From: Actinomycetota bacterium
GTDB taxonomy: Bacteria; Actinomycetota; UBA4738; CALAEC01
Length of the DNA stretch: 24,000 nt
Direction of reading: 5' to 3'
Assembly: GCA_036260395.1 (NCBI GenBank)
Contig: DASZZY010000126.1
Coordinates: 16,235-40,234, forward strand
Shown: one piece after another, positions 951 through 9,928 of the stretch
Position numbering within the stretch: the first letter of the stretch is position 1
How the letters are laid out: every line of letters starts with the position of its first letter
Made by a program: the position numbers and the translations under genes
Notes under the pieces: model-generated
What the model saw: only the letters and a program-made list of their open reading frames with translations
Database searches by the model: none
Told to the model about the DNA's origin: nothing

Positions 951-1820
951 TCATCGCTTCCATCCTTCCTTCGTCGGCAGGCCCCGACGCTGGAGCCGGG
1001 CGACCCGCGCGCGACGTTCGCGTTCCGGGTTTGGGACCGGCACGGCCTCCAGCAGCGAGCGCGTGTACGGCTGGCCGGGCTTCTGGAACACCTCGTGCGA
1101 GTGTCCCATCTCCACGATCTTTCCCCGGTTCATGACGGCCACTCGCTCGCAGACCAGCGGCACCAGCGAGAGGTCGTGGGTGATGAACAGGTAGGAGAGC
1201 TCCAGCCGCCGCTGGAGCGCCGCCAGCAGATCGAGGATCTGGGCGCGGATGGTGACGTCGAGGGCGGACACGGGCTCATCAAGGACCAGCAGGCGCGGCC
1301 GGGACGCCAGGGCCCGCGCGATCGCCACCCGCTGTTGCTGTCCTCCGCTGAGCGCGACGGGATAGCGGCGGCCGTGCTCGGGGAGGAGCTGAACGAGCTC
1401 GAGGAGCTCGTACGCTCGTATCCTCGCCTCGCGAGCGCTGGAGGCCAGCCCGTGGAACCGCAGCGGCTCCGCGATCAGCTCTTCGACGGACATCCGAGGG
1501 TTGAGGGAAACCCGCGGGTCCTGGAAGACGATTCCCACCTGTTTCCGGTACCACCTGAGGGCTCGCTGCGGGAGCGGGGACACATCCGCCCCGCGGAAGA
1601 GGATCTGGCCCCACGTCGGTTCGATCAGCCGAAGCACGCAGCGGGCCAGCGTGGACTTCCCCGACCCGGATTCTCCCACCAACCCCACGGTCTCGCCCTC
1701 GGCGATGGTCAGGGAGACCTCGTCGAGGGCCCGGACCCTGCCCACGGTGCGGCGTAGCACCGCGCCCCGCGTGATGGGATAGTCCTTCACCAGGCCCTCG
1801 ATCCTGAGCAGGGGGTTCAT
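951..1820 (-). CDS. Dpp/Opp/Nik-type ABC transporter ATP-binding protein (DppF/OppF-like)
   Basis: Walker [10 protein letters not shown], signature LSGGQQQR, Walker B LLVLDEP and a C-terminal oligopeptide-type tail ([12 protein letters not shown]). I prefer the ATG at 1818-1820 because it forms an ATGA overlap with the upstream ATPase stop at 1817-1819. The track start at 1835 is a GTG. Confidence 0.9.
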
Positions 1821-2632
1821 GGCCCACCTCGCCACGCCGGTGGGGCGAGCCGGGCGACGGAGGAGATGAGGGCCCGCGTATAACCGTCCCTCGGGCTGGC
1901 GTAGATGGAGCGGACGGAGCCTTCCTCCACCACGCGACCACGGTGGAGGACCACGATCCGGTCCGCGAATCCGGCCATCAGCGCGAGGTCGTGCGTGATG
2001 AGGATCACGCTCATCCCCCGTACCTCCGCGAGCGCGAAGATGAGATCGACGATCTCGGCCTGGGTGGTGACGTCGAGGGCCGTGGTCGGCTCGTCGGCGA
2101 TCAACAGCCCCGGCTGGCAGGCCAAGGCCATGGCGATGACTACCCGCTGCCTCATGCCACCGGATAGCCGATGCGGGTAGTCGTGGGCGCTCCGCGCGGG
2201 CGACGGAAGCTGCACCTCCTCGAGCAGCCGCGTCGCTCGCTCCCAGGCTTCTCGGCGGGAGACGCGCTCGTGCGTCCGGATCGCCTCGCTGATCTGCGCT
2301 CCAACCGTCATGGCGGGATTCAGGGAGTTGAGCGGGTTCTGGAAGATCATGCCGATCCGCGCGCCCAGTAACCGTCGGACGTCCCGACGGCGGAGCTGAA
2401 GCAGATCCGTCCCGTCGAGCAACACCCGCCCCGAGACCTCGGCGCCGGGGATCCTGAGGAGGCGCGTCATGCTGAGCGCGGTCATGGTCTTCCCGGCACC
2501 CGACTCGCCGACGATGCCCAGCCGCTCGCCGCCGGAAAGCGAGAACGTCACACCGTCGAGGATGCGAAGTGCCCCCTCTCGGACATGCAGCGTCGTCGTG
2601 AGGTCGTCAACCTGGAGGAGAGGCTGGCTCAT
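1817..2632 (-). CDS. Dpp/Opp/Nik-type ABC transporter ATP-binding protein (DppD/OppD-like)
   Basis: Walker A GESGAGKT, signature LSGGMRQR and Walker B LLIADEPTTALD. ATG start at 2630-2632, 10 nt after the permease stop. Confidence 0.9.
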   Translation of the reverse strand: MSQPLLQVDDLTTTLHVREGALRILDGVTFSLSGGERLGIVGESGAGKTMTALSMTRLLRIPGAEVSGRVLLDGTDLLQLRRRDVRRLLGARIGMIFQNPLNSLNPAMTVGAQISEAIRTHERVSRREAWERATRLLEEVQLPSPARSAHDYPHRLSGGMRQRVVIAMALACQPGLLIADEPTTALDVTTQAEIVDLIFALAEVRGMSVILITHDLALMAGFADRIVVLHRGRVVEEGSVRSIYASPRDGYTRALISSVARLAPPAWRGGP

Positions 2633-2642
2633 GCCGGCAACC

Positions 2643-3551
2643 TCATCGAAGCGTCGGATCCAGCACGTCTCGGAGGCCGTCGCCGAGCAGATTGAAGCCG
2701 AGGGCGACCACGGCGATGGCGATCCCCGGATAGATCATGAGCTGCGGGGCGCTGGCGAGGTAGCGCTGCCCCTCCGACAACATGGCGCCCCATTCCGGCG
2801 TTGGCGGTCGTACGCCGAGGCCGAGGAACGAGAGGGCAGCCAGGATGAGCAGGAGCTGGCCCGTGCGGAGGGTCGCCACCGCCAGGATGGGGCCGACGAC
2901 GTTGGGGAGGATGTGGCGCGTGGCGATCCGTCGTCCTGACAGCCCCAGCGCCCTGGCGCCCTCCACGAAGTCCCGCTCCCTCATGGCGAGCACGAGCCCC
3001 CGCACGAGGCGCGCGTAGCTCAACCAGTAGACGCCGATCATGGCGATGGCGAGGTTCAGCAAGCCCGGCCCGAGCACACCAGTGACCACCAGCGCGAGCA
3101 GCAGGGGCGGGAACGCCAGTAGAAGATCGACGATCCGCATGATGAGGCCATCGAGGATGCCTCCCACGTACCCGGAAAGCGTTCCCACCACGATGCCGAT
3201 CGTGAGGACCCCCGCACCGATCGCCAGGGTCGTGAGGACCGAAGTCCTCGCTCCCAACACCATCCGCGAGAACTCGTCGCGCCCGAGGTTGTCCGTCCCC
3301 AGCCAATGCTCAGCGCTCGGCGGAGCGTACCGGTTCATCACGTTCTGCCGGGCAGGGTCGTGCGGGGCGATCCAGGGCGCCAACAGGGCCACGAGCACCG
3401 CCAGCGTGACGATCACCAACCCGGCCAGCGCCGTGGGGTCCGCGACGAGTCGGCGGAGGAGGACGCCACGGGCCGGAAGCACGATCGACCGAGGCTCTGG
3501 CGCGGCCGGGTCGATCTGGAACGAGCGCCCCTCCGAGACATCGACGCTCAC
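2643..3551 (-). CDS. ABC transporter permease (DppC/OppC/NikC-like)
   Basis: 302 aa and multi-pass hydrophobic, with an EAA-type loop (FVEGARALGLSGRRIATRHILPN). The GTG start at 3549-3551 overlaps the upstream permease stop at 3548-3550 (GTGA). Confidence 0.9.
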   Translation of the reverse strand: MSVDVSEGRSFQIDPAAPEPRSIVLPARGVLLRRLVADPTALAGLVIVTLAVLVALLAPWIAPHDPARQNVMNRYAPPSAEHWLGTDNLGRDEFSRMVLGARTSVLTTLAIGAGVLTIGIVVGTLSGYVGGILDGLIMRIVDLLLAFPPLLLALVVTGVLGPGLLNLAIAMIGVYWLSYARLVRGLVLAMRERDFVEGARALGLSGRRIATRHILPNVVGPILAVATLRTGQLLLILAALSFLGLGVRPPTPEWGAMLSEGQRYLASAPQLMIYPGIAIAVVALGFNLLGDGLRDVLDPTLR

Positions 3552-4498
3552 CGAACCCCCCTACCCTGAGCCAACGCGACACGCGGATCCAGCCACAGAT
3601 AGACCAGGTCGACCACCAAGCTCACGAGGACGAACACCGTTCCGGAGAAGACCACGAAGCCCTGGAGCATGGTGTAGTCGCGCTGCCCGATGGCCTCGAC
3701 CGCGAGGCGCCCGATGCCCGGCCAGACGAAGATGATCTCGATCACCGCGGAATAGGCCAGCAGGATGGCGAATACCATGCCGACCTCCGTCACGACCGCC
3801 CCCAGAGAGTTCCGGAGGGCGTGGCGGATGACCACGCGCCTTTCCGGAACACCCTTCGCCCGGGCGGTCATGATGTAGTCCTCCCCGAGGACCTCGAGGA
3901 GGCTCGACCGCATCAGCCGGGCGACGACGGCGGCCTCGCCGAGCGCCAGCGCCAGCGCCGGGAGGACCAGATGCTGCAGTCCGTCGCGGCCGAGTGCGGG
4001 CAACCACTGCAGCTCGACTGAGAACACGATGATGAGCAGGAGGGCGAGCCAGAAGGCCGGGACGGAGGCCCCCAACAGTGCGGCGACGCGGAGGAGGTGA
4101 TCGAGGAGACTGTTCCGCCGGATCGCCGCCACAACACCGAGCGGAATGGCGATCACGAGCGTGATCAGCGTGGCGGCCGTGGCCAGCTGAAGCGTCGCCG
4201 GAAACCTCGACACGAGCTCGTCCGTCACCTCGCGGCCGGAGTAGTAGGACGTGCCGAGATCCCCGCGGACGGCCCCCCCGAGCCAGTCGAGGTACTGGAT
4301 CGGGAGCGGGCGGTCGAGCCCGAGCCGGGCGCGGGTCGATGCGAGCTCGGCCTGGTTGGGCTGTCGGTCGTGCACCCGAACGAAGTAGCTGTGTGCGGCG
4401 TCGCCGGGCGCCAGGCGCACGAGGAAGAACGCGAGCAGCGTGATCCCGATCCACGTGGGGATCAGGTACGCCACCCGGCGAGCGATGTACGCGACCAC
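3548..4498 (-). CDS. ABC transporter permease (DppB/OppB/NikB-like)
   Basis: 316 aa. The N-terminus MVAYIARRVAYLIPTWIGITLLAF is typical of this family, and it has an EAA loop (YIMTARAKGVPERRVVIRHALRN). GTG start at 4496-4498. Confidence 0.9.
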   Translation of the reverse strand: MVAYIARRVAYLIPTWIGITLLAFFLVRLAPGDAAHSYFVRVHDRQPNQAELASTRARLGLDRPLPIQYLDWLGGAVRGDLGTSYYSGREVTDELVSRFPATLQLATAATLITLVIAIPLGVVAAIRRNSLLDHLLRVAALLGASVPAFWLALLLIIVFSVELQWLPALGRDGLQHLVLPALALALGEAAVVARLMRSSLLEVLGEDYIMTARAKGVPERRVVIRHALRNSLGAVVTEVGMVFAILLAYSAVIEIIFVWPGIGRLAVEAIGQRDYTMLQGFVVFSGTVFVLVSLVVDLVYLWLDPRVALAQGRGVR

Positions 4499-4587
4499 GA
4501 CCTGGGCCCGGGGTCACCCCCTCGTCGCGCGACGATCGTCCGTGCCATCGCCGGCACGACCGACGACCGGACCGGAGCGTGCCCCGG

Positions 4588-6189
4588 TCACTCGGCGATG
4601 TACACCGTGTCGTATCGGTTGTGGAGTCCCGACGGCGCCGCCTCGAACCCCTCGACGTTCTGGTCGAGGACGTTCACGGTCACCACCCCGGCCAGCGGAA
4701 TCACGATCGCCTCTTGATCGATCAGGATGTGCAGCGCCTCCGCCGTAAGCTCCTTGAGCTCCTCTTCGTCCGGGGTCGCCACCGCCCGGGCGATCACCTC
4801 GTCGAACCGTCCTTTCGGGGCGAAGACCGGCTGGTACCCGATGTTGCCGAACAGGCCGATCGACCAGAACAGGAGGGCCGGGAGGAAGGCAGGGTTGGCG
4901 TCGTTCTGGCTCCCCTGCTCCAGCCACAGATCGCCGGCGAAGCGGTCGAGTCGAGCCTCGTAGGATGCCGTGTCCGGCGTCCTGATGATCTCGACATCGA
5001 TCCCCACCCGGCGTAGCTGGTCCTGGAGGAACTCCGGAACCGCCCCGTGCTCCTCAGCTGAGGGGAAGCCGGCAATCAGCTCGAGGCGCAACGGCTCCCC
5101 GCCCTTCTGCCTGATGCCGTCCGGCCCTGGCATCCAACCAGCTTCCTCGAGGAGGGCCTCGGCCTGCGCCGGGTCGTGCTCGTACCCCTCGATCCGACCG
5201 GCTGCCTCACCGAGCAAACGCGACGGCACCATGGTTTGCTCCCTGGCCGCGTATCCCTCGAACACGCCCTCCACGAGGGCCTCGCGGTCGATGGCGTACC
5301 CGATGGCGTGCCTCACGCGCTCGTCGGTGAGGATGGTGTAGCCAGATCTGCCGCTCTTGTTGAGGTAGATGGCCTCGTACGCGCCCGGCTCGCCGACCTC
5401 CACGGTGAACCCTCGGGCCTCCAGCTCCCCAACGGCATCGGGGGGGATGTCCAGCGCCATGTCCACCTCACGAGCCTCGAGCGCCAGTCGCCTTCCGTTG
5501 TCGTTGGGGATGAACCTGAATGTGATCCTTCGGAGGGTGGGAAGCTCGCCCCAGTAGTCGTCGTTCCGCGCGACCACGATCTCTTCCTGCGGTCGGTAGC
5601 TCACGAACTTGAAGGGCCCTGTCCCGACCGGATCGTCGTTGGGCTCCGTTCCCGGGGCCACGATGAAATAGTTCGGGTGCACCAGCTGCTGAGGGAGGCG
5701 CCGGTTCTCGAACATGGGGGTCACCTCGATCGTGTAGTCATCGATGATCTCGGTGGAGTCCTCACCGAGACCAGGGGTCCCCCCTCCGCCTTCGGCCACG
5801 AGGTTGAACGTGTGCTTCACCGCCTCCGCGTCGAACCGCTGCCCATCGTGGAACCGCACTCCCCTGCGCAGTTCGAACCGCCAGGTGTTCGGAGGCAGGA
5901 ACTCCCACGATGTGGCCAGGCTCGGCAGCACGTTGTACTGCGCATCCATCCGGACGAGCCCCTCGAAGATGTTGATGTTCAGCGGGTACAGCCCGATGGT
6001 TCCTTGATCGCTCCCCCCTCCGGACGTGTACCGGTCCGCGCCCGCTCCCACCACGTGCTCTTGCTCCTCGGGCGGCGCAGGCTGCGTGCCGCCGCGCCCG
6101 TCGGGTTGTCCTCGCATGCATGAGGCGACGAACACCAACAGCAGGCTGAGCGTGGTGATACCCGTTCGCAGCGTGTGGGACGTCCTCAC
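4588..6189 (-). CDS. ABC transporter substrate-binding lipoprotein, family 5 (DppA/OppA/NikA class)
   Basis: 533 aa. It has a signal peptide with a lipobox (LLLVFVASC). Its length and layout match family-5 binding proteins. GAGGAGGAGG lies 9 nt upstream of the GTG start at 6187-6189. The gene order (SBP, B, C, D, F) matches dpp/nik operons. Confidence 0.85.
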   Translation of the reverse strand: MRTSHTLRTGITTLSLLLVFVASCMRGQPDGRGGTQPAPPEEQEHVVGAGADRYTSGGGSDQGTIGLYPLNINIFEGLVRMDAQYNVLPSLATSWEFLPPNTWRFELRRGVRFHDGQRFDAEAVKHTFNLVAEGGGGTPGLGEDSTEIIDDYTIEVTPMFENRRLPQQLVHPNYFIVAPGTEPNDDPVGTGPFKFVSYRPQEEIVVARNDDYWGELPTLRRITFRFIPNDNGRRLALEAREVDMALDIPPDAVGELEARGFTVEVGEPGAYEAIYLNKSGRSGYTILTDERVRHAIGYAIDREALVEGVFEGYAAREQTMVPSRLLGEAAGRIEGYEHDPAQAEALLEEAGWMPGPDGIRQKGGEPLRLELIAGFPSAEEHGAVPEFLQDQLRRVGIDVEIIRTPDTASYEARLDRFAGDLWLEQGSQNDANPAFLPALLFWSIGLFGNIGYQPVFAPKGRFDEVIARAVATPDEEELKELTAEALHILIDQEAIVIPLAGVVTVNVLDQNVEGFEAAPSGLHNRYDTVYIAE

Positions 6190-6472
6190 GAGTGAAAACC
6201 TCCTCCTCGCCCCGGTACGCCGGTCGAGCCGATCGGTGTGCGGCGACCACGAGCGAAGGGAGGTGCCGGTGGCCGCCGATCCCCGTCCACGCTAGCCACC
6301 GCCGGTAATCGGAACAATTGGTGTGTTCGGCACATGACGTCGGTGGTACAACGGGTGAGCTTCGCATATAGCGTGCTGCTGACCCGTCGTGGCCACGTGT
6401 TCCCGGCGCTGGCTGCGCTGGAGGCGGGTTGTCGTACGCTAGGTGAGGCCCAGCCGTAGGAGGAGACGCACG
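6190..6472. promoter_or_regulatory. Divergent intergenic region between the binding-protein gene and the Cys-rich micro-ORF; probable bidirectional promoter/operator region
   Basis: This is the longest non-coding gap in the window (283 nt). It contains the window's most AT-rich patch (about 6306-6375). An imperfect inverted repeat CGGAACA-N7-TGTTCGG lies at 6310-6330 around a CAATTG core. A TATAGC -10-like hexamer lies at 6367-6372. No transcription start data are available. Confidence 0.3.
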
Positions 6473-6619
6473 ATGGCCACCGAACTTGGGATGATCGGCT
6501 GCGATTGCGGCTGCGACTGCTGCCAGCCGGGGCCGGCGAACGAGGCCGAGGAGCGCGAGCTGCTGCTGCACCAGAAGCGGCTGATCGACCAGCGGCTCGC
6601 GCAGCTGCAGGGGAACTGA
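6473..6619 (+). CDS. Unannotated 48-aa Cys-rich small protein (MATELGMIGCDCGCDCCQPGPANEAEERELLLHQKRLIDQRLAQLQGN)
   Basis: It is below the ORF-track size cut-off. The ATG is preceded by GGAGGAG with 7-nt spacing. 45 of 48 sense codons end in G or C, matching the genome's coding bias. Five Cys fall within 8 residues (codons at 6500-6523), followed by a heptad-like helical tail. It sits 47 nt upstream of the M50 protease gene. Confidence 0.6.
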   Translation: MATELGMIGCDCGCDCCQPGPANEAEERELLLHQKRLIDQRLAQLQGN

Positions 6620-6666
6620 CGGCCGCCCCGGATGCGCCCGGGGAGGGAGGATCTCCGCGGGCCGCC

Positions 6667-7365
6667 GTGGAGCGCCCGAGGGGGCGCACGCTGCCGTCGC
6701 TGCGGTTCCGGCTGGCGGGGATCCCCGTCAGCGTCGACCTGCTGTTCTTCGTCACCGCGCTGTTCCTCGGGACCTCCGCGGGGCGGGACGGCGCCTCGCT
6801 CCTCGTCTGGGTCGCGGTGGTGCTGACGTCCGTCCTGTGGCACGAGCTGGGGCACGCCCTCGCGCTCCGGGCGTTCGGGTACGCGCCGGTCGTCGAGCTG
6901 TGGGCCTTCGGCGGACTCACCTACCGCGCGTCCGGGAGCAGGACGCCGGCGGGCAGGTTCCTGGTCGTCACGCTCGCCGGCCCGGGGGCCGGGCTGATCC
7001 TCGGGGGGACCGTTCTGCTCTGGCTGCGCACGGCCGCGCCGCTCGACCTCGGTCCGCTTGCGGAAGCGGCCATCGTGGACGTCCTGTGGGTCAACATCGG
7101 CTGGGCGATCCTCAACATGATCCCGATCCTGCCGCTGGACGGCGGGAACGCCCTGGCGTCGTTCCTGGACCTTGTCACGCGCGGCCGGGGGATGCTCCCC
7201 GCCCGGGTGGTCTCCGTCCTTCTGGCGGGGGCCGGCGTAGTGGCCGCGGTCCTGGCCCGCGAGTGGTGGCTGGCGCTGCTGGCGGGGTTCTTCCTGCTGA
7301 CGAACGCCTCGGCGCTCCGCCGTCCGCGCCGTCCGGCGGCGCGCGCCGCGCCCGAGGAGCGCTAG
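6667..7365 (+). CDS. M50-family (site-2-protease type) membrane zinc metalloprotease
   Basis: HELGH motif (VLWHELGHALALRAFG) plus a second motif NMIPILPLDGG, in a polytopic hydrophobic protein. The track start at 6505 is a TTG inside the micro-ORF. The GTG at 6667 is the only in-frame start after the micro-ORF stop, but its Shine-Dalgarno sequence (GGAGG at 6646-6650) is 16 nt away, so the start is uncertain. Confidence 0.8.
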   Translation: MERPRGRTLPSLRFRLAGIPVSVDLLFFVTALFLGTSAGRDGASLLVWVAVVLTSVLWHELGHALALRAFGYAPVVELWAFGGLTYRASGSRTPAGRFLVVTLAGPGAGLILGGTVLLWLRTAAPLDLGPLAEAAIVDVLWVNIGWAILNMIPILPLDGGNALASFLDLVTRGRGMLPARVVSVLLAGAGVVAAVLAREWWLALLAGFFLLTNASALRRPRRPAARAAPEER

Positions 7366-8807
7366 CAGATCCGGGGGAGCGGGTCGCCGATCAGCATGTC
7401 GACGATCCGGGTGCCGCCGAACTCCGTCTTGAGGAGGACCAGCGTGGGCGGGTCGTCCTTGACCCGGCCGATCACCGCCGCGCCCTCGCCGAGCGGGTGC
7501 GAGCGCATCGCCTCGAGCGCCGCCTCCGCCCGAGCGCCATCGACGATGGCCACCAGCCGCCCCTCGCACGCCACGTAGAGCGGGTCGATCCCCAGGATCT
7601 CGCTCGCGCCGCGGACCTCGTCGCGCACCGGGATGGCGGACTCCTCGACGACCAAGGCCACGTTCGCCACCTGGGCCACCTCGTTGAGGATCGTGGCCAC
7701 CCCTCCGCGGGTCGCGTCGCGGAGGCACCGCACGCCGTCGGGGACCGCGTCGAGGAGCCGGCTCACCAGCCCGGCGAGCGGCGCGGTGTCCGACTCGACG
7801 TCGGCCTCGATGTCGAGCTCCCCCCGGGCCAGCATGATCGTGACGCCGTGGTCGCCGATCGGCCCGGAGACCAGCACGGCGTCGCCCGGGCGGACCTGTG
7901 CGGCGCCCAGCGTGACCGGCCGCTCGAGGACGCCGACCCCCGTGGTGTTCACGTACACGCCGTCGGCCTTCCCGCGGTTCACGACCTTGGTGTCCCCGGT
8001 CACGACCTGGACGCCGGCCCGTTCCGCCGCAGCGGCCATCGACCCCACGATCCGGCGCAGGTCCTCCACCGGGAATCCCTCCTCGAGGATGAACCCCGCC
8101 GAGAGGTACAGCGGCCGGGCGCCGGAGACCGCCAGGTCGTTCACGGTGCCGTTGACCGCCAGGTCGCCGATGTCGCCACCGGGGAAGAACAGCGGCGAGA
8201 CCACGAACGAGTCCGTGGTGAACGCCAGGCGCGCTCCGTCAACCGAGAACACGGCCTGGTCCTCGAGCGGCTCGAGGAGCGGGTTCCGGAAGTGCTCCAG
8301 GAACAGCGCCTCGACCAGCGTGTGGGTCGCCTTGCCGCCCGAGCCGTGCGCCAGCGTGATCCGCTCGTCTTTGATCCGGGCCTTCCGCCGGCGGGCCCGG
8401 TCGATCCGATCCAGCACCTGCTCCTCCCGGGACAGCACCCGTTCGCCGAGGGGGTACTGGGCCAGCTCCGGATCGTCGGCGTGCTCGCGCACCAGTCGCT
8501 CCACCCACTCCGCGGTCCGCCCCTCCGGGTCGGGGGCGGCGTCGCGGGCCCTGGCCCCTGGAGCCGTGGGGGGCTCGGGCGCCTCGATCTCGGCCTCGTC
8601 GGGGGCCGGCGGCGCCTCCGGCGCGTCGATGTCCCCGCGGTCCGGGGCCGGCGGCGCCTCCGGGGCCTCGGTGTCCGGCGTCGACGGCGCGGGGGGGGCC
8701 GGCGGCGCCTCGGTGTCCGGCGTCGACGGCGCGGTGGGCGCCTCGGGGAGCTCCTCGACGTCCGGAGCGCGGGGCGCCTCGGGGGCCTGGACCTCGCGCT
8801 CGGTCAT
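7362..8807 (-). CDS. hypE: Hydrogenase maturation carbamoyl dehydratase HypE with an N-terminal extension of about 146 aa
   Basis: From LAHGSGGKATH (residue 152) to the C-terminal PRIC it is colinear with canonical HypE. The ATG at 8805-8807 forms an ATGA overlap with the hypD stop, and GC3 stays high through the extension. An alternative internal start is the GTG at 8415-8417, with GGAGG 5 nt upstream. The 793-aa track ORF runs on spuriously into hypD. Confidence 0.9.
   Translation of the reverse strand: MTEREVQAPEAPRAPDVEELPEAPTAPSTPDTEAPPAPPAPSTPDTEAPEAPPAPDRGDIDAPEAPPAPDEAEIEAPEPPTAPGARARDAAPDPEGRTAEWVERLVREHADDPELAQYPLGERVLSREEQVLDRIDRARRRKARIKDERITLAHGSGGKATHTLVEALFLEHFRNPLLEPLEDQAVFSVDGARLAFTTDSFVVSPLFFPGGDIGDLAVNGTVNDLAVSGARPLYLSAGFILEEGFPVEDLRRIVGSMAAAAERAGVQVVTGDTKVVNRGKADGVYVNTTGVGVLERPVTLGAAQVRPGDAVLVSGPIGDHGVTIMLARGELDIEADVESDTAPLAGLVSRLLDAVPDGVRCLRDATRGGVATILNEVAQVANVALVVEESAIPVRDEVRGASEILGIDPLYVACEGRLVAIVDGARAEAALEAMRSHPLGEGAAVIGRVKDDPPTLVLLKTEFGGTRIVDMLIGDPLPRIC
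8604..8734 (-). repeat. In-frame tandem repeats encoding the Pro/Glu/Ala-rich part of the HypE extension
   Basis: A 27-nt exact repeat (cctcggtgtccggcgtcgacggcgcgg) occurs at 8666-8692 and 8708-8734, a 42-nt period. The 15-mer ggccggcggcgcctc occurs at 8604, 8646 and 8697. At protein level these read APSTPDTEAPPAPP / APSTPDTEAPEAPP plus further EAP/PAP units. Confidence 0.85.
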
Positions 8808-9928
8808 GCCCGGGTCGCCTCCCGCACGCGCTCCCGGGTGAACCGGCCGAAGTTGTAGTAGGCCGCGCAGGCGCCCTCCGAGGACACCATGCACGTCCCG
8901 ATCGGCGTCTCCGGCGTGCACGCCGTGCCGAACACCTTGCACTCCCACGGCTTGATGACGCCCTTCAGCACCTCGCCGCACTGGCAGGCCTTCGGGTCCG
9001 CCACGCGGACACCCGGCACATCGAACAGCACCTCGGCGTCGTGCGCCGCGAAGGTCTCCCGGACCTTGAGCGCCGAATGCGAGATGAACCCCAGCCCCCG
9101 CCACTCGAAGTACGGCCGGAGCTCCATGGTCTCGTTGATGGCCTCCAGCGCCCGCCGGTTCCCGTCCCAGGGGACCACGCGGGTGTACTGGTTCTCGACC
9201 TCGGCCCGCCCCTCGTCGAGCTGCTTCAGGATCATCCAGATCGACTGGAGGATGTCGAGGGGCTCGAACCCCGCCACCACCAGCGGCTTGTCGTAGTCGC
9301 GAGCGATGAACTCGTAGGGCCGGCAACCGATCACCGTGGACACGTGTCCCGGCCCGATGAACCCGTCCAGTCGCATGTCGGGCGAGTCCAGGATGGCCTT
9401 GATCGCCGGGATGATCGTCACGTGGTTGCAGAACACCGAGAAGTTGCGGATGCCCTCGGCGGCAGCTCGGAGCAGCGTGACCGCCGTCGACGGCGCCGTG
9501 GTCTCGAACCCGATGGCCATGAAGACGACCTTCCGGTCGGGGTTCTGCCGGGCGACCTTCACCGCGTCGAGCGGCGAGTACACCATCCGGATGTCGGCGC
9601 CCTGGGCCTTCGAGTCGAAGAACGACCCATGCCCGCCGGGGACGCGCATCATGTCGCCGAACGAGGTCATGATCACGTCCGGCTGCTCGGCGATGAAGAT
9701 CGCGTCGTCGACCCGGCCCATCGGGATCACACAGACGGGACACCCGGGCCCGTGGATCAAGGTCACGTTCTCCGGCAGGTAGTCCTCGAGCCCATGCTTG
9801 TAGATCGTGTGGGTGTGCCCGCCGCAGACCTCCATGATCTTGATGGGCCGGTTGGCGGCCAGCTCGGCGATCTCCCGGGCCACCCTCCGGGCGACCTTCT
9901 CATCGCGGTACTCGTCGACGAACCTCAT
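8804..9928 (-). CDS. hypD: Hydrogenase maturation Fe-S protein HypD
   Basis: 374 aa with all HypD hallmarks: VCGGHTHTI, GPGCPVCV, GFETTAPS, CQCGEVLKG and CTPETPIGTCMVSSEGACAAYY. The ATG at 9926-9928 overlaps the upstream stop (ATGA). Confidence 0.95.
   Translation of the reverse strand: MRFVDEYRDEKVARRVAREIAELAANRPIKIMEVCGGHTHTIYKHGLEDYLPENVTLIHGPGCPVCVIPMGRVDDAIFIAEQPDVIMTSFGDMMRVPGGHGSFFDSKAQGADIRMVYSPLDAVKVARQNPDRKVVFMAIGFETTAPSTAVTLLRAAAEGIRNFSVFCNHVTIIPAIKAILDSPDMRLDGFIGPGHVSTVIGCRPYEFIARDYDKPLVVAGFEPLDILQSIWMILKQLDEGRAEVENQYTRVVPWDGNRRALEAINETMELRPYFEWRGLGFISHSALKVRETFAAHDAEVLFDVPGVRVADPKACQCGEVLKGVIKPWECKVFGTACTPETPIGTCMVSSEGACAAYYNFGRFTRERVREATRA

Follow-up and report, generated by a model that had tools for sequence, protein, structure and literature searches.

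The question raised by this locus is whether a 48-codon open reading frame (ORF) situated between an ATP-binding cassette (ABC) importer of the Opp/Dpp/Nik type and genes for [NiFe]-hydrogenase maturation (hyp genes) in an Actinomycetota genome is a gene at all, and what its cysteine-rich product does. The window, meaning the whole stretch of 24,000 nucleotides that was analysed, corresponds to G000:C126:16235-40234, G000 being the window's genome, whose glutamyl-tRNA synthetase has its closest named counterparts in metagenome-assembled genomes labelled "Actinomycetota bacterium". The ORF is a genuine conserved gene under purifying selection, its product is a small soluble protein whose family had not been described (flexible thiolate cluster, linker and helix of about 24 residues), and genes of this family recur within hyp clusters. 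The reading favoured here, held at about even confidence and drawn from comparison of sequences, is that the peptide may act as a nickel-binding buffer or donor in hydrogenase maturation independent of HypA and HypB.

The features of the micro-ORF are the following.

6473..6619, plus strand: CxCGC micro-protein gene, 48 residues (ATG 6473, TGA 6619), assigned by conservation, the ratio of nonsynonymous to synonymous rates (dN/dS) and family searches.
6456..6465, plus strand: Shine-Dalgarno sequence, GTAGGAGGAG, by direct reading, with GGAGG 9 nt upstream of the ATG.
6500..6523, plus strand: cysteine cluster C10-D-C-G-C-D-C-C17, five cysteines in codons 10-17.
6542..6613, plus strand: C-terminal amphipathic helix, residues 24-47, predicted by AlphaFold2, with heptad-like spacing L31-I38-L45.

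The translated product is MATELGMIGCDCGCDCCQPGPANEAEERELLLHQKRLIDQRLAQLQGN (48 residues). A sequence-only reading of the window had pointed to a strong Shine-Dalgarno sequence, typical codon bias and five cysteines within eight residues, and all three were seen again, the GC content at third codon positions being 0.90 in the micro-ORF and 0.80-0.97 in the window's real genes (window GC 71.6%). An open frame of 48 codons is weak evidence in DNA of about 72% GC, and since an open frame alone is no evidence at high GC, relatives were sought, and the coding call rests on conservation. A single orthologue of equal length and 73% identity was present in two metagenome assemblies. Its start and stop occupy the same positions on contig L021 as those of the micro-ORF in the window, and the flanks could not be aligned with those of the window, except for a TAGGAGG ribosome site ahead of the ATG. 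Between the two genes, 10 codons carried a synonymous change only and 13 a nonsynonymous one, giving a dN/dS (Nei-Gojobori) of 0.27 in frame and 0.15 over the first 21 codons, compared with values of 1.17 and 2.12 when the frame is shifted. The hypE C-terminus from the same pair of genomes gave 0.26, so that purifying selection acts on the micro-ORF as it does on the neighbouring hypE. Around the gene, no Rfam element (such as the NiCo riboswitch) was found in 6000-6800 and no promoter consensus in 6100-7450, the sole terminator-like site of the latter interval sits within the downstream M50 gene, the RNA between micro-ORF and M50 gene showed no significant fold, and inverted repeats upstream of the micro-ORF were weak.

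The same frame might be taken for a cysteine-sensing leader ORF, that is, a translational attenuator, or for a non-functional ORF. Mycobacteria are known to have polycysteine leader ORFs, and five cysteine codons in eight, placed upstream of another gene, would suit such a role; yet the cysteine-free helix is as conserved as the cysteine block, the downstream genes are different at every locus, and in L021 there is nothing downstream to attenuate because the next gene is convergent. An attenuator is rejected on the conserved helix together with the convergent gene of L021, and this account as a whole is given next to no probability.

Homology to described families was not seen, scans of the peptide against Pfam (at E up to 1) and NCBIfam returning zero families. 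A single-sequence search of 61 relatives gave chance-level matches only, a two-sequence profile run over 294 genomes of the order gave nothing above chance level, and patterns back-translated from the two-sequence alignment returned no relative when run against collections of genomes and metagenomes. The two-sequence profile searched against 1.84 billion representatives returned six small proteins (best family E-value 5e-14), and a profile search of a 5.8-billion set returned 18 family members. Since the matches of the unrestricted search were all of 84 residues or fewer, there was no sign of members fused to larger domains. Six-frame searches of a sample of 401 genomes of the phylum added four copies in G431 and one in G656 (sequences were read for four of these five), and a degenerate DNA pattern for CxCGCDCC, applied to species genomes, gave one true member among the matches listed, in a Nocardioidaceae metagenome-assembled genome, the rest being chance. 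The profile searches define a family of about 25 relatives of 43-110 residues, each with the invariant CxCGC, present once to three times, and an amphipathic helix at the C-terminus. One member stands in databases as "hypothetical protein [Acidimicrobiales bacterium]", and no paper on a natural CxCGC family was found in the literature. The view that a small gene had been overlooked was borne out by the orthologue, its dN/dS and this family, in whose members both the reading frame and the CxCGC cysteines are conserved.

CxCGC was invariant in 18 of 18 aligned members, and the invariant columns of the family comprised C10, C12, G13, C14, E27, L31, R41, L42 and L45. Short forms, including that of the window, contain a single CxCGC block and long forms two or three, with the same helix after the last block in every case, and a proline-containing linker joins the cysteine block to the helix. 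By AlphaFold2, residues 21-48 were predicted with block means of 85-94 in the predicted local distance difference test, and residues 1-23, including the cysteine cluster, were unstructured and of low confidence; the amphipathic, heptad-like tail that had been proposed from the letters alone agrees with the predicted helix. In long forms the positions aligned to 28, 31, 35, 38, 42 and 45 are mostly hydrophobic, with a/d coiled-coil spacing.

The neighbouring genes in the window are the following.

951..6189, minus strand: Opp/Dpp/Nik-type ABC importer of five genes (two permeases, two ATPases, binding protein 4588-6189), assigned by Pfam and divergent from the micro-ORF.
6667..7365, plus strand: M50 membrane metalloprotease, 232 residues, GTG start (PF02163, 40 bits, E 3.6e-10).
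7362..8501, minus strand: hypE core (AIRS domains), assigned by Pfam and convergent with the M50 gene.
8804..9900, minus strand: hypD (PF01924, 526 bits).

The window thus reads importer, micro-ORF, M50, hypE, hypD, two SIS genes and a second hypC, and contig C126 upstream of the window encodes a NifU-like protein, the large and small subunits of a [NiFe]-hydrogenase, HypC, a CooC/MinD-type ATPase and HypF. The earlier statement that hypCDE and a Nik/Dpp-type importer flank the locus agrees with Pfam, which assigns the importer, hypE, hypD and the second hypC. For the importer binding protein the top NCBIfam model was nickel_nikA at 202 bits, under its cut-off of 393. The window HypE has a long N-terminal extension at 8358-8807 with Pro/Ala/Glu repeats, and a HypE-like ORF of G431 (L053:2341-3936) is likewise N-terminally long, with 531 residues and AIRS domains from residue 233.

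The M50 gene had been read as the partner of the micro-ORF, and its protein as an intact protease whose substrate or regulator the peptide might be. The protease is indeed intact (HELGH and NMIPILPLDG) and begins 47 nt after the micro-ORF. If the peptide were a substrate or regulator of the protease, or the precursor of a ribosomally synthesised and post-translationally modified peptide (RiPP) processed by it, the co-directional genes, the short gap without a terminator-like site and the weak score of 27 bits that the M50 protein reaches with the daptide maturation protease model (cut-off 300) would be in keeping. The pairing, however, is missing at every other locus. A response regulator occupies the place of the M50 gene in L021, no M50 match was found in the hyp clusters of G431 and G656, and no M50 gene stands beside any other family member among the loci examined; relatives of the window M50 protein within its own family of genomes are 34-42% identical, have longer frames of 380-390 residues and occur in four of 26 genomes. 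In no gene flanking the micro-ORF at any locus was a modifying-enzyme domain detected, no modifying-enzyme family recurs, and the conserved part of the peptide has no typical leader and core arrangement. Substrates of site-2 proteases carry a membrane segment, and the peptide, judged from its sequence, has no hydrophobic or transmembrane segment. Partnership with the M50 protease is largely refuted by synteny (L021, G431, G656 and the family genomes), the adjacency is probably incidental, the M50 gene is probably no functional partner, and a role of the peptide as protease substrate, regulator or RiPP precursor is judged highly improbable.

What recurs around the family instead are genes for NikA-like ABC importers and CooC/MinD-type ATPases, heavy-metal MerR genes and, in three distant genomes, hyp genes; most of the metagenome contigs carrying relatives are short. 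L021 has a DppC-type permease gene, the peptide gene, the response regulator gene and hypE, in that order. At the locus of the short form P0004 (L038) the peptide gene comes after a DUF3303-like gene and converges with a gene for an OppC permease, and the same DUF3303-like gene flanks the importer of G000; another short form, P0003, lies near a NifU gene. In G431 (C91) a CooC-like ATPase gene, hypF, hypC, hypD, hypE and two permease genes are followed by two CooC-like genes on the opposite strand and then by merR and the peptide gene. In G656 (C110) the hydrogenase subunit genes are followed by a CooC-like ATPase gene, hypC, SIS, hypC, SIS, hypD and hypE, and then by a further CooC-like gene, merR and the peptide gene, two opposite-strand CooC-like genes and hypF. 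The G431 permeases (G431:C91:24242-25904, L208) match those of the window in short pieces in different frames, and may be decayed.

Long-form genes overlap the end of merR by 4 nt, an arrangement of translational coupling, in at least five loci. The merR genes whose ends overlap the start of a CxCGC gene in this way are the following.

L054:7469-7915: merR.
L039:2613-3065: merR.
L032:1207-1632: merR.
L103:2638-3105, minus strand: merR.
L202:1760-2221: merR.

The coupled MerR proteins form a distinct group in the heavy-metal branch, in which the motifs CPCGH and W-x-C are invariant, and on Acidimicrobiales contigs (two contig sets) the merR-peptide pair is divergent from the cobalt-transporter genes cbtB/cbtA. 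The overlap would suit a peptide that is primarily a partner of MerR, either as a metal-dependent co-regulator or as a metal donor in the manner of MerD or CopZ, the short forms being derived orphans, and CPCGH in MerR precedes a long dimerisation helix, a layout resembling CxCGC followed by its helix. Against this, neither the window copy nor its closest relatives have merR nearby, and profile-profile comparison gave 20% probability over the helix only, by which homology of the peptide to the MerR C-terminus (CPCGH plus helix) is not supported. We consider a MerR partner very unlikely.

The distribution of HypA and HypB was followed in the sampled genomes of the phylum. The peptide is carried by three of the 401 (G000, G431 and G656, with completeness of 94.9%, 98% and 96%), all of which have a [NiFe]-hydrogenase with hypCDEF and neither HypA nor HypB above the family cut-offs. 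First remarked as absent from the window, hypB was not found above the cut-off in the 94.9%-complete genome either. HypB was found in 145 of the 401 genomes, and the three carriers are all among those in which it was not found; within the family of G000, HypB occurs in none of 27 genomes and a hydrogenase in four of 27. Five further genomes (G545, G399, G500, G338 and G634) also have a [NiFe]-hydrogenase and hyp genes with HypA and HypB not found.

A candidate for the missing HypB function lies close by, in genes that were located as follows.

G000:C126:12126-12917, minus strand: CooC/MinD-type ATPase gene adjoining hypC, ending 3.3 kb before the window start (same coordinates in L031).
L054:8296-9033 and L053:5830-6594: further CooC-like genes.

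The G000 gene contains one in-frame TGA at the first cysteine of a G-C-x-C metal motif (…HAGSG*NCNAH…), and its orthologues have either TGA or a cysteine codon at that position. A second paralogue type reads GCP*CG and is followed by a hairpin that is strong in G656 (z -3.7) and weaker in G431 (z -1.9), and G000 has both tRNA-Sec (C39:1418-1510) and selB. As the score-based grouping of CooC-like genes was set after the data had been seen, the grouping by in-frame TGA is also given: a CooC-like match with in-frame TGA occurred in 20 of the 401 genomes, 19 of them without HypB, the exception (G608) being a partial match, so that the gene and HypB have complementary distributions. In five near-complete genomes, in which HypA was not found, the CooC-like gene lies 3-7 kb from the gene for the hydrogenase large subunit. 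The TGA-containing gene probably encodes a selenocysteine-containing, ATPase-type stand-in for HypB, a replacement on which no paper was found in the literature.

Taken with the conserved motif, these contexts (NikA-like importers, hyp genes, MerR, no HypB) fit the proposal that the peptide stands alone as a metal binder or metallochaperone connected with nickel and the maturation of hydrogenase. In the mechanism that we favour, the thiolates of the peptide would bind Ni(II), and possibly Co(II) too, the nickel being held in square-planar geometry by thiolates together with backbone amides, in the manner of other CGC sites. Two or more chains would be paired through the helix, so that a dimer would present a cluster of 6-10 thiolates. 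Encoded between a NikA-like importer and hyp genes, the peptide would hold imported nickel and pass it, directly or through the CooC/MinD-type ATPase replacing HypB, to the large subunit of the [NiFe]-hydrogenase, a job that elsewhere falls to the HypB CxxCGC site, the SlyD tail or CooJ/CooT. The longer relatives that follow merR would be a metal-induced version of the same buffer, and the M50 protease would stand outside the system.

Several observations weigh against this mechanism. Only three of the sampled genomes carry the peptide, and related genomes are non-independent samples, and about 19 other HypB-less genomes with a CooC-like ATPase have no peptide. The peptide is not required for the CooC-ATPase pathway, because those genomes do without it, and given the rarity of the family and its absence from most genomes without HypB, the peptide is accessory at best. 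Thiolate clusters bind Zn, Cd, Cu(I) and Hg as well, and the best NCBIfam models for the MerR partners are MerR, ZntR, CadR and CueR (Hg, Zn, Cd and Cu). Several members have neither hyp genes nor a nickel context around them, one lying beside a SpoIIE phosphatase gene, for example, and P0005 and P0006 (L033:326-2601 and L072) lie between arginine deiminase and DUF6390 genes with gaps of 10-60 nt. The helix of the short forms is weakly heptad-like, and because positions 28 and 35 are Arg/Lys in them, oligomerisation is something that we infer. G000 also encodes a nickel superoxide dismutase (Ni-SOD) on C58, its second nickel enzyme and another possible client for a nickel-handling peptide. The arginine deiminase and DUF6390 context of P0005 and P0006 has no obvious metal link, and the Ni-SOD precursor signature (…AYA/HCDLPCGVYDPA…) is on the minus strand of G000:C58, near 2094 from the reverse end.

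Some of these points would be expected of the main rival, a metallothionein-like sponge for excess Cu, Zn, Cd or Hg to which hyp proximity is incidental. Translational coupling of the long forms to heavy-metal MerR genes, the ArsR-family gene near the L032 copy and the several family contexts without hyp genes speak for a sponge. The short forms, the window's included, have no adjoining merR gene, however; their nearest members, P0002 and P0004, lie by a NikA-type importer or hyp genes, P0003 has NifU nearby, the MerR-peptide pairs of G431 and G656 are inside hyp clusters, and the three carriers are all among the HypB-less genomes. A sponge also sits poorly with just three to five cysteines per module, a conserved helix and no match to PF02069, and we consider it unlikely, though a genuine contender. 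A third use of the cysteines would be in iron-sulfur or redox chemistry, a helix dimer holding a [2Fe-2S] or [4Fe-4S] cluster, or a redox dithiol, as carrier or scaffold for hydrogenase or Hyp maturation. A bridging cluster could be ligated by closely spaced cysteines in chains that dimerise through the helix, and NifU-like genes lie near the G000 hydrogenase and near P0003; only three cysteines are invariant, though, the links to MerR and cbtAB suggest free metal ions and not clusters, and CxCGC is not known as an iron-sulfur motif. This use is judged quite unlikely.

What is understood of how [NiFe]-hydrogenases receive their nickel comes almost wholly from HypA, HypB and SlyD. For the steps left unaccounted for in these Actinomycetota, in which neither HypA nor HypB was found, the micro-protein and the CooC-like ATPase offer concrete candidates. 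The micro-ORF also adds another conserved gene to those missed by annotation pipelines or labelled "hypothetical".

Among known systems, the bacterial metallothioneins SmtA/BmtA and MymT resemble the family in being small and cysteine-rich, and in that some relatives are under a metal-sensing regulator. They differ in that the CxCGC peptide does not match PF02069, has far fewer cysteines and devotes half of the protein to a conserved helix. Bacterial metallothioneins are controlled by an SmtB/ArsR repressor, whereas the long forms of the CxCGC family are coupled to MerR. CooJ and CooT are small nickel-binding helpers (CooT being dimeric) of the MinD/CooC-type ATPase CooC in the maturation of carbon monoxide dehydrogenase (CODH) (PMC6006190). 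CooC-like ATPases are encoded in the same clusters as the peptide in G000, G431 and G656, a likeness that is a functional analogy only. The peptide uses cysteine ligands where CooJ is His-rich, has a helix where CooT has a beta fold, and shows no relation to either in sequence, matching no Pfam or NCBIfam family, on the assumption that those libraries include CooT/CooJ models; its client would be a hydrogenase and not CODH, because no Ni-CODH gene was found in G000.

HypB proteins are of two kinds, GTPase and MinD-type ATPase (PMC13202556). The N-terminal CxxCGC of E. coli HypB (residues 2-7), on which maturation depends, binds Ni(II) in square-planar geometry with picomolar affinity, the N-terminal amine being the fourth ligand (PMC12284835). 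Like this extension, the peptide has a CGC-ending cysteine cluster on a flexible segment and is found together with genes for the maturation of [NiFe]-hydrogenase and for a Nik importer. The resemblance of CxCGC to CxxCGC claimed in the sequence-only reading therefore stands for the CGC chemistry, and fails for spacing and position: the motif of the peptide is CxCGC at residues 10-14, so its N-terminal amine cannot be a ligand, and unlike HypB, where the site is fused to a G3E GTPase (TIGR00073), the peptide is free-standing, with 48 residues and a helix of its own.

At the distal nickel of acetyl-CoA synthase, CGC provides two thiolates and two backbone amides (an N2S2 site), and the designed 13-residue "nickelback" (CxCGCxxxxxCG) binds two nickel ions, one of them through two thiolates and two amides of CGC, which also bridges to the second (PMC10005181). 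The peptide shares the CxCGC core with nickelback and CGC with acetyl-CoA synthase, as a predicted site only, and differs from nickelback in being a natural protein and in having its extra cysteines at +2 and +3 (DCC) instead of about +6. That it is the natural counterpart of nickelback, donating nickel in a HypA/HypB-free route that uses selenocysteine-containing CooC-type ATPases, is a doubtful proposal; if true, a natural example of the designers' minimal CxCGC nickel site would interest bioinorganic chemists.

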